A model generated the notes under the pieces. The model was not told where the DNA came from. It made no database searches and saw only the letters and a program-made list of their open reading frames with translations. Positions 1,028-8,732 of a stretch of 12,987 nucleotides of DNA are shown here, in pieces (the stretch's first letter is position 1; the number at the start of each line of letters is the position of its first letter). Source of the stretch: a virus; the UHGV virus genome UHGV-0056732. One strand, written 5' to 3'. Both the position numbers and the translations under genes were made by a program.

Positions 1028-1046
1028 AAGTTACTTTGCATACCAT
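1028..1046 (+). promoter_or_regulatory. Candidate P1-type late promoter for the lydA-dar operon (9-bp inverted-repeat element plus TANNNT -10)
   Basis: AAGTTACTT (1028-1036) - TGCA - TACCAT (1041-1046); the same architecture and spacing recurs upstream of lyz (10269-10287). The late-promoter consensus is recalled only approximately. Confidence 0.4.
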
Positions 1047-1404: not shown

Positions 1405-1844
1405 TTGGCTGGGGGGTATGCGTTCTTGCGTTAGCCTTAGCCGATCGCTATTTGCTAAAACGCAAGGACATCACGCATTTAGAACTTGGTGATGTGGAAA
1501 TTAAACCGGGTTTCATCCGGGTGCCGTTCAAATACCGGTCTAAATTCCCGTTTTTGCGCGGCGCAACGGTCAGATATTGGATCCGCGATGTTCAGAAGCC
1601 AACGACAGTGATTGAAGGCGAACAACGTTGTCTGACGTCGGCTGAACAGGGCGAAAACAGTGAATGGTTGTACATACCCACTGAATATATGGGTAAAGGA
1701 GAACGGCTGTGGCATTTCAACGTCATGGTTACGCATGGCGACTCGTTCATTAACCCGTTGTATCGGATTTTCCCTGTTACTCAGCAAATCCGCAGAAGTT
1801 ACGTAATAAATCTCGCACAGGATGTGTCAGATGACGAAAAATAA
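1401..1844 (+). CDS. lydB: LydB-like holin antagonist (antiholin), 147 aa
   Basis: ATG at 1401 overlapping the lydA stop, SD GGGAGG upstream; hydrophobic N-terminus MIGWGVCVLALALA; position and size match P1 lydB as recalled. Confidence 0.65.
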   Translation: MIGWGVCVLALALADRYLLKRKDITHLELGDVEIKPGFIRVPFKYRSKFPFLRGATVRYWIRDVQKPTTVIEGEQRCLTSAEQGENSEWLYIPTEYMGKGERLWHFNVMVTHGDSFINPLYRIFPVTQQIRRSYVINLAQDVSDDEK

Positions 1845-2433
1845 GTATGCAACGGTCGATTTTGACCAGGTTAATGAAAAGGGGCTGAAATCCCTTATCG
1901 CGGCGATCAATAAAACCGGTGTTACGGTAATTGAGGTTGACTCCAGCAACCGCGCAACAACGAAAGATGGCGTTAAAGTTAAAACCGCAAAGCTGGTTCT
2001 TAACGACGGACAAATTCTTGCCATACAGGTAAACGATACTGGCGATATATCGTCTGTGAGGCTGAATGGAAAAGCTATTCCTAACGCTCAGTCTCCGGAT
2101 ATCAAGACGCTTGGTACCGTCATGGGGCAAGCGGCCCGCAAAAACTCCGCAAAATTCCAGAAATCACTGATCGCCAAAGCGAAACGTGTTGCCAATCCGG
2201 TAGACAAGAAACCGGCAGTAAAATCCAACTTTCAGCGCCTGCAAGAGGCAAAACAGCGGAATGCTCAGGTGGTTGCCGCTTATAAATCAGCGCAGAACTC
2301 GGTGTCTTTCAATCAACAGCAGATCACTGATTTGCGGGCGAAGCTGGATAAGGAGACAGGCCGACTCAATAACGAAAAGGCCCGAAATGGCGAACTCAAA
2401 CGCCGTCTTAAGCAACTGAAAGCAGGAAATTAA
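1822..2433 (+). CDS. hdf: Hdf-like protein (paralog of a DarA segment), 203 aa
   Basis: ATG at 1822 (alternative ATG at 1831); shares the KNSAKFQ block and a preceding L-DGQ-I-I region with the next gene; C-terminal coiled-coil-like stretch; stop TAA at 2431 just before the darA start. Confidence 0.6.
   Translation: MCQMTKNKYATVDFDQVNEKGLKSLIAAINKTGVTVIEVDSSNRATTKDGVKVKTAKLVLNDGQILAIQVNDTGDISSVRLNGKAIPNAQSPDIKTLGTVMGQAARKNSAKFQKSLIAKAKRVANPVDKKPAVKSNFQRLQEAKQRNAQVVAAYKSAQNSVSFNQQQITDLRAKLDKETGRLNNEKARNGELKRRLKQLKAGN
2140..2160 (+). repeat. 21-nt direct repeat copy 1 (within hdf), encoding KNSAKFQ
   Basis: AAAAACTCCGCAAAATTCCAG; 20 of 21 nt identical to 3038-3058 and codon-aligned in both genes. 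Confidence 0.6.
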
Positions 2434-2434
2434 C

Positions 2435-4321
2435 ATGGAACAGTTCAATATCAATAAAGGGGTGACGATCAAGCCTGGGCTTGACGTGCTTCCCCCGCCA
2501 GTGACTGATGATGAATATCGCGCATTAATGGCCGGTGAGGACCGCTATCTGATGACGGAATCCAACACCCTGGAGGAAATCGAGGCTACGTTCTTCTATG
2601 ACACGCCGATCCACTGGTGTGCTACGGATTTACTGGAGGCGATTAGTTCTACTCGTTTGCAGCTACACCGGACCATGCAGGCATTTGTCCGGGCATTGAA
2701 CCAGAAGCTGAATGGTACCGGAATCTCTGCGGGGAGTGATAAAACGGGGGATGTGGCCCAGAACGGTGCACGCGCGATCGGCGGGGCTGAAATTGGCCGG
2801 GCACGTAACGTTAACGGGCTGCCGGTCCTGCCAGCCATTATTCCGCTCAGTGATGGTCAGACTATCAGCATTCTGTTTCATAGCCCGACAGCGGAAAACC
2901 GGATCACCAATAGCGATACGCTGATTGCTTTCCAGTTCTTACTGAATAAAAAAGACGTTACTCATACCGTTGCTCCGATGAGTGGACGTGATATGACGCT
3001 GGCGCAGGTCACCATGAAACTTGCCAACCTTGCAGAGAAAAACTCGGCAAAATTCCAGCGTGCGCAGAAGAAGAAAAAAGCCCTGGTTGATGAAATAACC
3101 CAACTACAGGCTGACAGTGACCAGAAAGAGGATGCCATGAGCGACCTCGCGGATCAGGTGGCAGCGGTAGAAGGGCAGAAGGTAGATCTGGAGCAGAAAA
3201 TTAACGCTGTTGCATCGGAAGCGGATTCTCTTTATGAAGAGAATGAGCGTTTGCAGACGGAGATTGATCAGCTCAATCGAACTGGTGGGCGCGAAACCAT
3301 TGCTCCTGCGGGGATGACTGGTGGACACTCTCGCGCGATGACGGATCGCCTTGCAAGTATCAAAAATCGTATGCATATGAACGGGGAAGTGACGCTCAGT
3401 AATGGTGCATCAATGAAGCAATTCATTGAGGACGGTGAAGGGTATATCCAGTTAACCGATTCGGATGGCAGCGTGTACATGATCAAGGCTAAATCCATAC
3501 AGGGTGTGGACATGGCAGATGCGATCGGCAAGCTGTTTAAAGCCTATAAAGCGGGTAATGTATCGGAATACCTGGTCCAACCAGAAGAACATAAACCGGA
3601 AAACGTCGAACCTGAACCAGAAGTCTCTGTAGGTGCATATCGATATGCCCTGCAAATGCGTCCGGCGGCCCCTGGCGCAATACCTGAAGGTAACAAAGCA
3701 ATTCTGCTGCGCCCTGATGAAGGTGACCCGTATTATGAATATGCACGCTACGGCATTGCTACTTACGATACCCCGCTTTCTGATCAGCAAATGAGTGAGT
3801 ACGACCTGAAGTTATTGCCTCGCGAGGATTCTTTCGACTTCCTGGCGAAGACACTTACTAATGGTCCGTTTGGCAAATATGCACAAAAAGCTCTGGAGCT
3901 GGCCACCAGCTCACCAGACGAGTTCCGCGTAATGCTGAAAACTCAGTTTCAAAAAACTTTCCCCAATATTGCGTTTCCGGGGGGCGCTGGCACCGAGAAA
4001 ATGGTGCAGAGCATGATCAATGCATTGCAGGCCGAAGTCGGTGAGATTACTCAGCCAGAACCGGCCCCGGCACAGCCTGATGAAACGGTTAGCGAAGCAG
4101 ATGCAGAGGCTAATAAAGCCATTGAATATCTCAATAACGTGATGGATATGCAAAGCACTGACATGGCGGAGATCCGTAACGCCCGGGGCAATGTCCGGGA
4201 AGCGATTGCAGCCCTTCAGGCTGCCGGACGTTTTGAGGAAAACGAAGAGCTGGTTAACGGCGCAGCTCGCCACCTGGCTGATCTGCTGGTAGCAATCCAG
4301 AAAGCGGGGGTAGCGGCATGA
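2435..4321 (+). CDS. darA: DarA-like virion-packaged anti-restriction / head protein, 628 aa
   Basis: ATG at 2435; size and operon position match P1 darA as recalled; central coiled-coil (about residues 200-285); shares a motif with hdf; stop overlaps the ddrA start (ATGA at 4318-4321). Confidence 0.7.
   Translation: MEQFNINKGVTIKPGLDVLPPPVTDDEYRALMAGEDRYLMTESNTLEEIEATFFYDTPIHWCATDLLEAISSTRLQLHRTMQAFVRALNQKLNGTGISAGSDKTGDVAQNGARAIGGAEIGRARNVNGLPVLPAIIPLSDGQTISILFHSPTAENRITNSDTLIAFQFLLNKKDVTHTVAPMSGRDMTLAQVTMKLANLAEKNSAKFQRAQKKKKALVDEITQLQADSDQKEDAMSDLADQVAAVEGQKVDLEQKINAVASEADSLYEENERLQTEIDQLNRTGGRETIAPAGMTGGHSRAMTDRLASIKNRMHMNGEVTLSNGASMKQFIEDGEGYIQLTDSDGSVYMIKAKSIQGVDMADAIGKLFKAYKAGNVSEYLVQPEEHKPENVEPEPEVSVGAYRYALQMRPAAPGAIPEGNKAILLRPDEGDPYYEYARYGIATYDTPLSDQQMSEYDLKLLPREDSFDFLAKTLTNGPFGKYAQKALELATSSPDEFRVMLKTQFQKTFPNIAFPGGAGTEKMVQSMINALQAEVGEITQPEPAPAQPDETVSEADAEANKAIEYLNNVMDMQSTDMAEIRNARGNVREAIAALQAAGRFEENEELVNGAARHLADLLVAIQKAGVAA
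3038..3058 (+). repeat. 21-nt direct repeat copy 2 (within darA), encoding KNSAKFQ
   Basis: AAAAACTCGGCAAAATTCCAG; single mismatch relative to 2140-2160. Confidence 0.6.
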
Positions 4322-4683
4322 CACTATCAGCTATTGAGTTAATGGATCTCAGCGATAAGTTGGATGCTCTGATGTCCAAAGCGGCTACCGCGAGTGGTAT
4401 GGAGTTGCTGGATATCAGCGATGAAATTGACCAGATCATGCAACAGATGGGGTACGGCGCGTCTGGCGGCGGTAGTGGCGAGGAGAAACAACCTTCGGAA
4501 CATGATGGTGTGCCAAAACTGGTTGCTGATTTCCTGGCTGATAAATTCGTCGATCAGAGCACAGATGCATTTATCGGTACCTTGCAGGACTTGAGTCAAT
4601 ATGTTGGCACATACATCGACCTGGACCAGGTTAAACAGCACACGGCGGCATGGATAGCCGCCAACATTAAAGAGGCAGCATAA
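4318..4683 (+). CDS. ddrA: DdrA-like small acidic protein, 121 aa
   Basis: ATG at 4318 translationally coupled to darA; strongly acidic composition (many D/E, no Arg); Gly/Ser-rich linker (GASGGGSGEE). Confidence 0.6.
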   Translation: MTLSAIELMDLSDKLDALMSKAATASGMELLDISDEIDQIMQQMGYGASGGGSGEEKQPSEHDGVPKLVADFLADKFVDQSTDAFIGTLQDLSQYVGTYIDLDQVKQHTAAWIAANIKEAA

Positions 4684-4695
4684 GGCGTAACAGGG

Positions 4696-7683
4696 ATGAG
4701 CTTAAGCGATCAGGTGGTAATGGCCACCAGCATAGAAACGCTGATCGAGCTGCTAAAGAACCTGCCCGATTATGGGCGGGTTTCGTATGTGGTGACAGCG
4801 AAGGGAGACGAGGTAAAAACAGCGTTTGATATCGTCGATGCCTCAGCTCTTTTGGTATCCAATACTCTGGATGGGAAAATTAATCCAGACTATCCCCAGG
4901 AACTTCAGCCGCGCGACCGGACCCGCGCATCCAGCCTTCTTCAGGTCAACCAGATATCCAAGGATTTGCGTCCTGCCCAGCTTACCGATTCCGGTTTATC
5001 CAGCCATGGCGCGCCAATAATTGGTGAGGACAATGCCGTTGAGTCAGGTAATGGGCGGACCATGGGGATCATTAAAGCCTATCAGGACGGTAATGCGGAT
5101 CGGTATCGGGAGTACCTGATTGAACATGCGACCGAATTCGGCATACGGCCTGAAAAGGTTGAATCAATGACGGCTCCGGTACTGGTGCGCCGCCGGTTAA
5201 CGACGGTTGACCGTGTTCAGTTTGCCAAGGACTCAAATATTTCTGATCTCCAGGAAATGGCAGCCAGTGAAAAGGCTTTTGTTGATGCCGACAGCATAAC
5301 ACCGGCGATGATGGCGCTTTTTAACCCGTCAGAAAGCGGAGATCTGCTTAGCCGCAGTAATGACGCGTTTATTCGCGGATTTATGACGCAAGTTGGTGCC
5401 ACACAGGCGGCTGGCCTTGTAACTGAAGATGGGCGACCAACACGGCAACTTGTTGACCGTATACAAAACGCGATCTTTGCCAAGGCATATAAGGATGCGC
5501 GCCTGGTAAGGATGGTTGCAGAAGAACCTGATCCGGATATGCGTAATGTTCTGACGGCGCTTAATGCGGCAGCCAATGATTTTGTCCAGATGCAGGCTTT
5601 ATCAGGAGAAGCGCACAAGCAGGCTGTGACAACTATTGTTGATGGCATTGAGACAGCGGATAGCCTCGATAAAAAGGCGCTGGCGGCATTGAAAGATGCG
5701 GTAGACCTGGTAAGGCAATCGAAGGAGTCAGGCCAGCATATTACCGATGTTATTGCTCAGGGGGATATGTTCAGCGAAACGGCCCCGGAAGTGAAAGCAC
5801 TCGCGTTGTTCATCGTCGCGAATAACCGTAGCGCGAAGCGTATGGCCACCGCCTTTAAGTTGATGGCTCAACGTATCAATGATGAGTTACAGCACCAGGG
5901 CCAGGCGCTGGGGGATATGTTTGGCGGCGGCGATGTGTCGTTACAGGATATCCTTCGCCAGGTGTCTCAGGAACTGGAAAACGAAGGCATGCAAGGGATA
6001 TCCGGCGGTCTTTTCGAGTCCGTTTCCGGCGGTAGTTACAACGGTGTTGCTCCGTATACCAGTTTGCTATTACATCGGGCATCCGGCATCAAAGACATTA
6101 TTCATCTGATCAGGCTGCTTTCCCGCACAGATCCCCAGGATGAACAGCTTGTACAAGTGCTTGCGCATTTTGTTCGAATGCCTGTTGCCGACGTGAAAAA
6201 ATGGTGCCGATTATTCGGTATCAGCAATTCGTTACTTCGCGGCTTGTTAAATCACGCATCCTCCCTTGGGCGCGATGGCTTTGACGAGATAGCGCAGGCG
6301 ATAAAAAACGGAGATATGCCACCAGCTATTGACTGGTTTTCCATTCGCCCAACCAGGGTGAAAGCATTCCTTAGCGCGGCGCATTCGGCATCACCATTGG
6401 CAGAAATGGTTCAGAGGTTATCGCTCATATTCACAGACCATACCGCGTTGGGTGATCTGACTCTGGACGAGATGAAGGAAGCCTCCATTCAGTGGGCCGA
6501 TCAACAAAATGAGGTTAACTCAGACTTCTTGCCAGCATTCAGGAAGGCCGTTAGTAAAGCGGATGATGCCCGTGGAATTCTGAAGGCATTTAAGGCATTG
6601 CAAAGTCGTGTTAATAAACATGTCGGTGATATCGATGGGGTAACGGCGGAAGGCAGGGATATCCTCAAAGAGCACGGCATAACGCCAGAGTTTATTGATG
6701 AGATCAGGACGGATATGCAGCGTGAGGTCGTATCGTCCCTGCAAATCGTAGCCAGAGCGTTGGCGGATGCTAATCCGAAGAGTGCGGCCATTGTTAACCG
6801 GGTTATTGGTGATATTGAAGCATCGGAGGGCATGGGGGCGCTGAAACTCTTCCTTTCGCGAGCGTTTAATCCTAACGGCAATATTCTCCCTGGCATTATT
6901 GGTGAGGCTAAAAAGTATGTCAGTGAAGAAGAACTTGAGCAGCTTGACCAACTACTTAAGCGATTCTCATATAACCCGCAGACACGCTGGCAAATGAATC
7001 AGCGAAGTATGGGTTCGGTCCACGAGAAAGTGTTATCTGCCATGAACAGTGCGATCGCAAACTCATCCGTATCTGAAGAAAAAGCTCTTGAGTGGGCCGA
7101 CTCTTTTATCACAGAAGAAGTGGAAGAAGCCCGCGCTGGACAGAATGGTGGGATAGACCTGCGCAAGGAACTTGCTGATATTTATCGCCTGACCGGCGGG
7201 AAAATATCGACCTTATCAAAGGTAGTTCACCACCAGGGAAGGGCATATGCAAATCTAAATGGTGTTGTTGCTGTCAATTTGAACGATAAAAATGCAAGTG
7301 CACTGTGGCACGAGCTGGGTCATCATCTTGAGTACAGTAACCCTGGTTTGTTAGAGAAAGCCCGGTCATTCCTGAAGGCCAATGTTGAAGGGGATAAGCC
7401 ATCATTCGTCAATATCGGTGGGCGTGGCAAGCCTGAATGGTGCTTCAGATCTCGATTGAGTAATATTTATATGGCGAAGGTATACCCGCCAGCCTCAGTA
7501 AGTAATTCCGGGAAAATTCGGCAGAAATCACCGACTATTTCCAAAACGTCAGCAACGGAAGTATTCTCTATGGCTCTTCAGTTGTATCATGACAAAGAGG
7601 CCGCTGCCGCATCACTGATGAATGGTGACGGATTGCTGGAACTGTTATTAGGTGTGGCAAAGGAGCTAAATAATGCAGATTAA
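4696..7683 (+). CDS. ddrB: DdrB-like large protein, 995 aa, with an N-terminal ParB/Srx-like motif region and a C-terminal HExxH zinc-metallopeptidase-like motif
   Basis: ATG at 4696; residues about 60-130 carry a ParB-N-like pattern (NPDYPQELQPRDR ... APIIGEDNAVESGNGRTMGI); residues 872-876 are HELGH (nt 7309-7323) followed by H877 and E887; size matches the roughly 108-kDa P1 DdrB as recalled. Confidence 0.65.
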   Translation: MSLSDQVVMATSIETLIELLKNLPDYGRVSYVVTAKGDEVKTAFDIVDASALLVSNTLDGKINPDYPQELQPRDRTRASSLLQVNQISKDLRPAQLTDSGLSSHGAPIIGEDNAVESGNGRTMGIIKAYQDGNADRYREYLIEHATEFGIRPEKVESMTAPVLVRRRLTTVDRVQFAKDSNISDLQEMAASEKAFVDADSITPAMMALFNPSESGDLLSRSNDAFIRGFMTQVGATQAAGLVTEDGRPTRQLVDRIQNAIFAKAYKDARLVRMVAEEPDPDMRNVLTALNAAANDFVQMQALSGEAHKQAVTTIVDGIETADSLDKKALAALKDAVDLVRQSKESGQHITDVIAQGDMFSETAPEVKALALFIVANNRSAKRMATAFKLMAQRINDELQHQGQALGDMFGGGDVSLQDILRQVSQELENEGMQGISGGLFESVSGGSYNGVAPYTSLLLHRASGIKDIIHLIRLLSRTDPQDEQLVQVLAHFVRMPVADVKKWCRLFGISNSLLRGLLNHASSLGRDGFDEIAQAIKNGDMPPAIDWFSIRPTRVKAFLSAAHSASPLAEMVQRLSLIFTDHTALGDLTLDEMKEASIQWADQQNEVNSDFLPAFRKAVSKADDARGILKAFKALQSRVNKHVGDIDGVTAEGRDILKEHGITPEFIDEIRTDMQREVVSSLQIVARALADANPKSAAIVNRVIGDIEASEGMGALKLFLSRAFNPNGNILPGIIGEAKKYVSEEELEQLDQLLKRFSYNPQTRWQMNQRSMGSVHEKVLSAMNSAIANSSVSEEKALEWADSFITEEVEEARAGQNGGIDLRKELADIYRLTGGKISTLSKVVHHQGRAYANLNGVVAVNLNDKNASALWHELGHHLEYSNPGLLEKARSFLKANVEGDKPSFVNIGGRGKPEWCFRSRLSNIYMAKVYPPASVSNSGKIRQKSPTISKTSATEVFSMALQLYHDKEAAAASLMNGDGLLELLLGVAKELNNAD

Positions 7684-7993
7684 AATCGCAGCGCCATTAG
7701 GCGGAGATGCCATTATCGAATTTGATGATAATGAAGAAGTTTCCGGGCGTTTGAGCATTATCTCCGGTGACATTACCGAGGACATGATCGCTGAAGCCAT
7801 AGCTGGGGCAAATCCCAATAGCTATATGGGATTCGTTAACACCCTTGATGCTCCCGCAAGTGATGTTCTCCGAACGCTGCATCTTTACGCTGGCTGGTTT
7901 GTTGATTGGCCAGCAGTAGATGGTGGCGATGAGGATGATGATGACGATGAAGAGGTTTTTAGTGATGAAACAGTAAACCAACTCTTGTATTGA
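7673..7993 (+). CDS. Hypothetical highly acidic protein, 106 aa, translationally coupled to ddrB
   Basis: ATG at 7673 overlapping the ddrB 3' end by 11 nt, SD AAGGAG 7 nt upstream; poly-acidic C-terminus DGGDEDDDDDEEVFSDE; about 27 D/E versus 3-4 K/R. Confidence 0.6.
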   Translation: MQIKIAAPLGGDAIIEFDDNEEVSGRLSIISGDITEDMIAEAIAGANPNSYMGFVNTLDAPASDVLRTLHLYAGWFVDWPAVDGGDEDDDDDEEVFSDETVNQLLY

Positions 7994-8123
7994 CAGGAAT
8001 TGGCATAGAATTGATTGTTCAAATTTCATCCATCACATAGACGACTTCATGTTATTTGCCTGATAATTATGGCCTTAATAACCCATGTATATCTTTTGGG
8101 TTATATTCTTATCTTTAACAAGG

Positions 8124-8167
8124 TTATAAGAGCGACAATGATAAATTTATCACTATCGCTCTTATAA
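8124..8167. repeat. 44-bp near-perfect palindrome between convergent genes; possible terminator and/or protein-binding site
   Basis: TTATAAGAGCGACAAT-GATAAATTTATC-ACTATCGCTCTTATAA: 16-bp arms (14/16 complementary) around a perfect 12-bp palindromic core; followed by T-rich CTCTTTGTT; lies between the stop of the 106-aa ORF (7993) and the stop of the minus-strand 95-aa ORF (8197). Confidence 0.5.
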
Positions 8168-8196
8168 CTCTTTGTTAGCTATAGCTTTAAACAAAT

Positions 8197-8484
8197 TTAG
8201 TTTTGAGGCAATGCAACAAAAGTCAGCTCTTGATCTTTGATTAATGCTTTTGTTTGTTTGGATGTAATTCCCACTTTAGTTTTTACATCATTGTGGAGCT
8301 TCTTATACGCTTTTATTTCATCTGCTGTATATCGGAAGCCATTTGCACTGTTACTGGACAGTTGAAGTGCGATTACGTCATCACTGACACCCGCATCGCT
8401 TAGCTTAGCTATGCGGGTAATAGTGTGGCCTGCGCGAGTGTTTGGGGTGGATATTTTGTCTAAGAAATTGTTCAGTTTTTCCAT
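8197..8484 (-). CDS. Hypothetical small protein, 95 aa, possibly HTH DNA-binding, in an AT-rich island
   Basis: ATG at 8484 with SD AGAGG 9 nt upstream; segment HTITRIAKLSDAGVSDDVIALQL resembles a helix-turn-helix; visibly AT-rich flanks; own upstream region separated from the 263-aa gene by a terminator. Confidence 0.55.
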   Translation of the reverse strand: MEKLNNFLDKISTPNTRAGHTITRIAKLSDAGVSDDVIALQLSSNSANGFRYTADEIKAYKKLHNDVKTKVGITSKQTKALIKDQELTFVALPQN

Positions 8485-8706
8485 TGTTTACAACCTCTTA
8501 CTTGAGTTTATTGCCAGTAGAATTGCTACTATTCTTTTGCCTCAACGAATCACAATGTACTGGAATAAGAAACTATGAGCAATACTTACGCTTTGCGAAT
8601 ACAGAAGATGAATAATCAACTTATTACTAAAATGTTAATAATATTATTCTGTTACATAGTGTTCGCTATAACAATCGGGAGTTGAATGCTAATTCAATAA
8701 ATAAAG

Positions 8707-8732
8707 ACCCCGCCAATTGGCGGGTTCTTTTT
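8707..8732 (-). terminator. Rho-independent terminator just downstream of the 263-aa gene; also usable on the plus strand
   Basis: GC stem CCCGCC(8709-8714)/GGCGGG(8719-8724) with 4-nt loop AATT; T-run TTCTTTTT (8725-8732) on plus, GTCTTTATT on minus. Confidence 0.6.

Follow-up and report, generated by a model that had tools for sequence, protein, structure and literature searches.

Does DdrB, a protein encoded by P1-like phages in their defence-against-restriction (dar) operon, contribute to anti-restriction as an enzyme or as a passive DNA-coating protein? The question is raised by an open reading frame (ORF) on the plus strand of UHGV virus genome UHGV-0056732, within a stretch of 12,987 bases analysed as a whole (the window), where an original prediction had combined a ParB-like N-terminal region with a C-terminal HExxH metallopeptidase-like motif and proposed that this Dar component may act enzymatically. 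The window shows ~98% identity to phage P1 and its relatives (Punavirus) across 83-92% of its length, and the ORF product is identical to P1 DdrB at 982 of 995 residues. Judged by sequence and by the P1 operon annotation, the ORF is the ddrB gene of a P1-like phage, and the window is its dar operon; ddrB is the name given to this gene in the annotations of both P1 and phage JL22. DdrB consists of four modules, namely a ParB domain, a helical domain conserved together with it, a variable helical region and a peptidase. The two domains of the original prediction are real, and two further modules have to be added to its layout. The features of the gene are as follows.

4696..7683, plus strand: ddrB coding sequence, 995 residues plus stop, ATG start, 108.7 kDa, isoelectric point (pI) 5.5 (from the ORF list and its translation)
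4801..5196, plus strand: DdrB-type ParB/sulfiredoxin-fold domain, residues 36-167, Pfam PF18763
4906..4914, plus strand: QPR motif, residues 71-73, within the invariant block LQPRDRT
5047..5058, plus strand: GNGR motif, residues 118-121, where a strand passes into a helix; Arg121 corresponds to the GxxR arginine of ParB
5197..5988, plus strand: all-helical domain co-varying with ParB, residues 168-431, helices at 173-431 in the model
5989..6051, plus strand: Gly-rich linker, residues 432-452, with a predicted local distance difference test score (pLDDT) <50 for residues 431-449
6052..6975, plus strand: variable all-helical region, residues 453-760, confident helices in the model
7000..7680, plus strand: zincin (gluzincin-type) metallopeptidase domain, residues 769-995
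7309..7332, plus strand: HELGHHLE active-site helix, residues 872-879, comprising HExxH plus E879, helix 868-881 in the model
7555..7569, plus strand: T954-E955-V-F-S958, candidate "glutamate helix" with a putative third metal ligand

The N-terminal domain falls into a Pfam family that takes its name from DdrB. Residues 36-167 match PF18763 (ddrB-like ParB superfamily domain) with E=1.3e-39 and 135.5 bits against a cut-off of 27.6, the match spans profile positions 2-120 of 121, and the same family is matched by 16 of 16 aligned relatives. Both motifs of the original prediction lie where it placed them, and the blocks that contain them, L70-Q-P-R-D-R-T76 and E116-S-G-N-G-R121, do not vary among 43 full-length relatives (38-61% identity) or in a 16-sequence alignment of the N-terminus. 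R121, Y129 and Y137 are also invariant, and Y137 sits on helix 135-143, so that the arginine and extra-helix tyrosine characteristic of the family in PMC5512222 are both present. In the full-length AlphaFold model (43-sequence alignment, mean pLDDT 81.6), an alpha/beta domain occupies residues 1-170, with strand 114-117 leading into G118-N-G-R121, which begins helix 119-131. This predicted structure has the alpha+beta fold of the ParB/sulfiredoxin superfamily, and its structural matches were KorB, PadC, SbnI, pNOB8 ParB-N and sulfiredoxin. The fold was checked by structure prediction because sequence profiles reach no solved ParB: a PDB profile search with the 16-sequence N-terminal alignment gave no ParB match, hhalign found no similarity of the N-terminus to P1 ParB or to the ParB_N-containing relative P0139, and a lenient Pfam scan of the N-terminus returned PF18763 alone, with no ParB_N match.

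At the C-terminus, the evidence comes from conservation and from predicted structure. By composition, 0.025 HExxH pentads would be expected in DdrB by chance, which makes the motif uncommon and is not decisive alone. An exhaustive representative search with the C-terminal 225 residues identified 384 relatives at E<=0.001, of which 214 were taken for alignment and 211 were aligned after an HExxH filter, the three dropped being fragments that start past the motif. H872, E873 and H876 are present in 211/211 aligned homologues, i.e. in every homologue covering the region, as is Y925; R849, E879 and E955 are found in 210/211, and two more residues, E914 and Y930, in 208/211. In alignment A1, whose 37 sequences reach down to 22% identity, none of the nine varies. 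The HELGH originally read at 872-876 stands, with H877 and E879 after it. The glutamate implied near 887 does not: E887 is <60% conserved in the alignment of 211 sequences, in which E879, E914 and E955 are the acidic residues that are conserved.

Sequence searches with the peptidase domain against Pfam, NCBIfam and PDB, as a single sequence and as a 37-sequence profile, gave nothing significant, and a word-indexed homologue search with the C-terminal domain returned near-identical fragments only. Sub-threshold matches in some relatives were enriched for zinc peptidase families (Reprolysin_2-5, Zincin_1, ATLF and M48). The zincin assignment was obtained from structure prediction instead. A model of residues 771-995 built from 37 sequences reached a pLDDT of 94.1 and a predicted template modelling score of 0.91, and its top structural matches are zincin metallopeptidases, including PPEP-2/3 and anthrax lethal factor; the PPEP and Certhrax matches recur with the full-length model. 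The modelled domain has the zincin layout, with a small sheet (842-860) preceding the active-site helix that carries HExxH (868-881), an insert, and a helix starting at E955. Both regions singled out by the original prediction were thus matched, the first by profile and structure and the second by structure. A chance occurrence of HExxH was considered and rejected, given the conservation of the motif and the fold match.

E955 is probably the third metal ligand, and E914 and E879, likewise strongly conserved, remain alternatives. E955 sits where helix 956-962 begins, and T954-E955-V-F-S958 agrees with (E,H)xx(A,F,T,S,G), the gluzincin motif given for ArdC in PMC7213743; T/S954 is present in 211/211 homologues and S958 in 203/211. 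Membership of the M34/ATLF family was considered and rejected, as DdrB has no profile match and only 1 of 37 relatives has a weak sub-threshold ATLF match (E=0.046). In structure the DdrB peptidase neighbours the lethal-factor/PPEP group, but it does not belong to the family.

Comparison with relatives clarifies how the four modules are combined. Against 42 relatives, the ParB domain and the first helical domain each average 68% identity, the fast-evolving second helical region averages 17%, and the peptidase, joined to that region by a short linker, averages 36%. The first helical domain always accompanies ParB. Because their mean identity is equal, the ParB and first helical domains are taken from the alignment to evolve as one unit, and many residues of the latter are invariant, e.g. 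D245-T249 and R378-R382. Among relatives, this unit is fused to an inorganic-pyrophosphatase (InPase) domain (PF18823), with or without the peptidase, or to a PBECR2 nuclease domain, and in some of them InPase and PBECR2 are placed before it. The recurrent pyrophosphatase fusion hints at nucleotide chemistry. The DdrB-type peptidase is in turn found behind MuF head-morphogenesis domains, behind a ParB_N domain and behind a DnaJ plus LRAT protein. Moreover, a syntenic operon was identified on the Vibrio P1-like contig JBEVUH010048434.1 (242-7869), with the order lydB-hdf-darA-(312 amino acids)-DdrB-like and a darA product of 1379 residues.

Three further architectures were each seen on a single contig, in which the DdrB C-terminus is joined to tail-fibre-like repeats (P0003), to an SLT lysozyme domain (P0011; PF01464) and to a phage tail-fibre repeat (P0013; PF03406). 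They could be real rearrangements or assembly chimeras.

These exchanges bear out the suggestion that DdrB is a polyvalent protein of the kind injected with DNA. Two effector-type domains, a late-operon context given by hdf/darA and the lysis genes, and domain shuffling among relatives were all found; delivery by the virion rests on the literature (PMC9024508).

Much of this picture was already available. The P1 reference annotation describes ddrB as "unknown protein function; possible metallopeptidase", and that of JL22 as "putative metallopeptidase". The DdrB-like ParB family was named for P1 DdrB by Iyer, Burroughs, Anand, de Souza and Aravind in 2017 (J Bacteriol 199:e00245-17; PMC5512222), who recognised the C-terminal zincin metallopeptidase of the P1 protein (HExxH plus Glu), noted that packaging is preceded by processing of DdrB to ~76 kDa, predicted that DdrB cleaves itself and that its N-terminal fragment is retained, and suggested an NTP-regulated DNase or NTP (nucleotide triphosphate) sensor as the role of the ParB domain. 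The ParB plus zincin layout is therefore correct and not new, having been published in that year. The additions made here are the structure models, the nearest solved neighbours (KorB/PadC at the N-terminus and PPEP/lethal-factor-like proteins at the C-terminus), the finding that residues 168-431 are as conserved as ParB, and E955 as a likely ligand. No new biological claim follows from the present analysis, which supplies supporting structure predictions and target residues only.

Experimental work has placed DdrB in the P1 head, with 39 unique peptides, 59.5% coverage and the listed role "aids DarB addition to capsid" (PMC9024508); the supplement of that study gives no list of peptides that would show which fragment is packaged. 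According to PMC12810830, the Dar proteins enter the head in a set order, in which DdrB follows Hdf and DarA and depends on both, and the EcoB/EcoK phenotype places DdrB in one group with DarB and Ulx. Furthermore, ddrB is non-essential (PMC10695390), and Dar works in cis only (PMC12707154). The name DdrB is shared by an unrelated Deinococcus DNA-damage-response protein, which is discussed together with the metalloprotease IrrE/PprI and pollutes literature searches for "DdrB metallopeptidase".

Taken together, the data somewhat favour DdrB as a packaged polyvalent protein of four modules, with a self-cleaving peptidase and with the ParB plus helical module as its ejected working part. While the head is being assembled or afterwards, the peptidase would cut DdrB, acting either in cis or on another copy, and the cut would yield the reported 76-kDa form, which would comprise residues 1 to ~696 if the N-terminal part is kept. 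A fragment of residues 1-696 computes to 76 kDa, and its end falls in the variable helical region. The ParB plus helical module would then be the functional cargo, ejected with the genome, probably binding a nucleotide triphosphate, DNA or both, and would support the action of DarB on the same DNA molecule. Several points weigh against this picture. The ParB fold assignment rests on Pfam family placement and predicted structure. In the searchable literature, which excluded Piya et al. 2017 and Lobocka et al. 2004, no ParB-motif or HExxH mutants of DdrB were found, nor, in the searchable literature, any experiments on zinc binding, peptide-bond hydrolysis or catalysis by either domain. The DdrB homologue of the Vibrio operon lacks a peptidase and consists of the ParB domain, the helical domain and InPase, which shows that the module can do without the peptidase. 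Domain pI values of 4.7-7.2, all called acidic, disfavour non-specific DNA coating. Intact catalytic motifs may translate into an enzymatic part in anti-restriction, as the original prediction supposed; ArdC, the closest precedent, did not need peptidase activity, its peptidase-dead E229A mutant having kept anti-restriction (PMC7213743).

The same 76-kDa form has another candidate maker. P1 encodes a T4-type prohead protease, Pro, which might process DdrB as it would other internal head proteins, leaving the C-terminal peptidase to some different job; this is possible, though rather doubtful. Pro is encoded in the window region, is T4 gp21-like with an HHpred score of 99.44% to 5JBL (PMC9024508 supplement), DarA is likewise proteolytically processed in head maturation according to the P1 annotation note, and the peptidase-less Vibrio homologue would sit comfortably with it. 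The peptidase nevertheless recurs in virion-targeted MuF fusions, which suits self-processing as argued in PMC5512222, and [LI]xE, the motif cut by T4-type proteases, occurs just three times in residues 640-800, at 657, 667 and 735, with none at ~696. It is less probable again that DdrB serves as a structural adaptor only, bringing DarB and Ulx into the head, with the chemistry of both domains irrelevant to anti-restriction. Its sole experimentally assigned role, the addition of DarB to the capsid, the ordered incorporation of the Dar proteins, the dispensability of ddrB, and the large, mostly helical and acidic nature of the protein all suit such an adaptor. Against it, near-strict retention of R121, H872, E873, H876 and E955 down to 22% identity implies selection on catalysis or ligand binding and not on shape alone, and the ParB module is retained when the remainder of the protein is swapped.

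The peptidase could also be imagined as an ejected effector that cleaves a host protein, e.g. a restriction subunit or another defence factor, and not DdrB. Its catalytic residues are invariant or nearly so, the structures closest to it belong to PPEP-2/3 and anthrax lethal factor, endopeptidases that are secreted or injected and have defined targets, and host targeting is one of the possible roles of polyvalent-protein peptidases listed in PMC5512222. Such an effector seems quite improbable, however: if the packaged 76-kDa fragment is N-terminal, the peptidase is not in the virion, a diffusible protease inactivating host enzymes is hard to square with protection in cis only, and the anti-restriction activity of ArdC is independent of its peptidase. 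At the far end of the scale stands the speculative idea that residues 36-431 form a nucleotide-gated KorB/ParB-like clamp, which would load on the exiting P1 genome and hold DarB (a methyltransferase-helicase), with the peptidase as a maturation switch freeing the clamp. Dar protection would then act in cis only because DarB is held on the genome by the clamp, and the InPase fusions would point to nucleotide chemistry that releases pyrophosphate; this reading is unlikely. Returning to the packaged, self-cleaving polyvalent protein, if both of its domains are active enzymes, Dar would be a packaged self-processing enzyme set travelling with the genome and not a passive shield. This would bear on the escape of phages and P1-based delivery vectors from type I restriction, an idea already in print for DdrB.

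The surrounding locus shows the expected arrangement. By the P1 reference annotation, the window contains cin, lydC, LPdar, lydA, lydB, hdf, darA, ddrA, ddrB, hxr and isaA, followed by ssb, lyz, lydD, pro and part of prt, and the order behind the late promoter LPdar is lydA-lydB-hdf-darA-ddrA-ddrB-hxr. The features upstream of ddrB are listed below.

1028..1046, plus strand: late promoter LPdar (P1 annotation), same sequence as in P1 by window-to-P1 alignment
1822-2433, plus strand: hdf, with a DarA_N Pfam match (P1 annotation)
2435-4321, plus strand: darA, with DarA_N plus DarA_C Pfam matches (P1 annotation)
4318-4683, plus strand: ddrA (P1 annotation)

The gap between the end of ddrA and the start of ddrB is 12 bases, and the start codon of hxr (7673) gives an 11-base overlap with the 3' end of ddrB, whose stop ends at 7683; on the sequence, this tight packing would fit translational coupling. 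The darA product has 628 residues here versus 639 in P1, with an 11-residue in-frame deletion (PESAEDTGSSS) at 3610-3612, around codons 392-393, in a Pro/Glu-rich linker, and the remainder is 96% identical. At 7990-8730, the window lacks the IS1 element and isaB that P1 has between hxr and isaA; in their place stand ~700 bp shared with phage vB_EcoM-Ro157c2YLVW, in which a 95-residue ORF (8197-8484, minus strand) had no Pfam match. Within ddrB, an antisense ORF at 5217-5648 on the minus strand corresponds to P1 iddB and is open here (143 residues); a Pfam search with it gave no match and no sign of a real gene was seen, and P1 iddB was scored non-essential in a CRISPR interference screen (PMC10695390).

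Finally, DdrB may be set beside known systems. With P1 DdrB as described in PMC5512222, it is the same protein in the same operon, and the domain layout, the ParB arginine and tyrosine, the HExxH plus Glu peptidase, the predicted autoprocessing to 76 kDa and the NTP hypothesis all agree. Compared with the ParB-CTPase fold proteins (KorB, PadC and canonical ParB) and with sulfiredoxin and SbnI, DdrB has neither a sequence-profile link to a solved ParB nor a Pfam ParB_N match; it also has no ParA partner or parS context, carries GNGR versus GERR and is acidic. Its likeness to the ParB-CTPase switches (canonical ParB, KorB and Noc) is one of motif resemblance (GNGR and QPR) only. The M34/ATLF zincins, including PPEP-2 and PPEP-3, share only 12-15% identity with the DdrB peptidase, with ~79 residues from HExxH to the candidate glutamate helix. 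The closest functional parallel to set against DdrB is ArdC of plasmid R388 (PMC7213743), an anti-restriction protein likewise carried by a mobile element and directed against type I (HsdRMS) systems; its N-terminal domain is nucleic-acid-related, and its C-terminal domain is an HExxH/Glu peptidase. Unlike DdrB, ArdC has a single-stranded-DNA-binding ArdC-N fold and not a ParB fold, it acts in the conjugation recipient and not from the virion, and its peptidase activity is dispensable for anti-restriction (PMC7213743).

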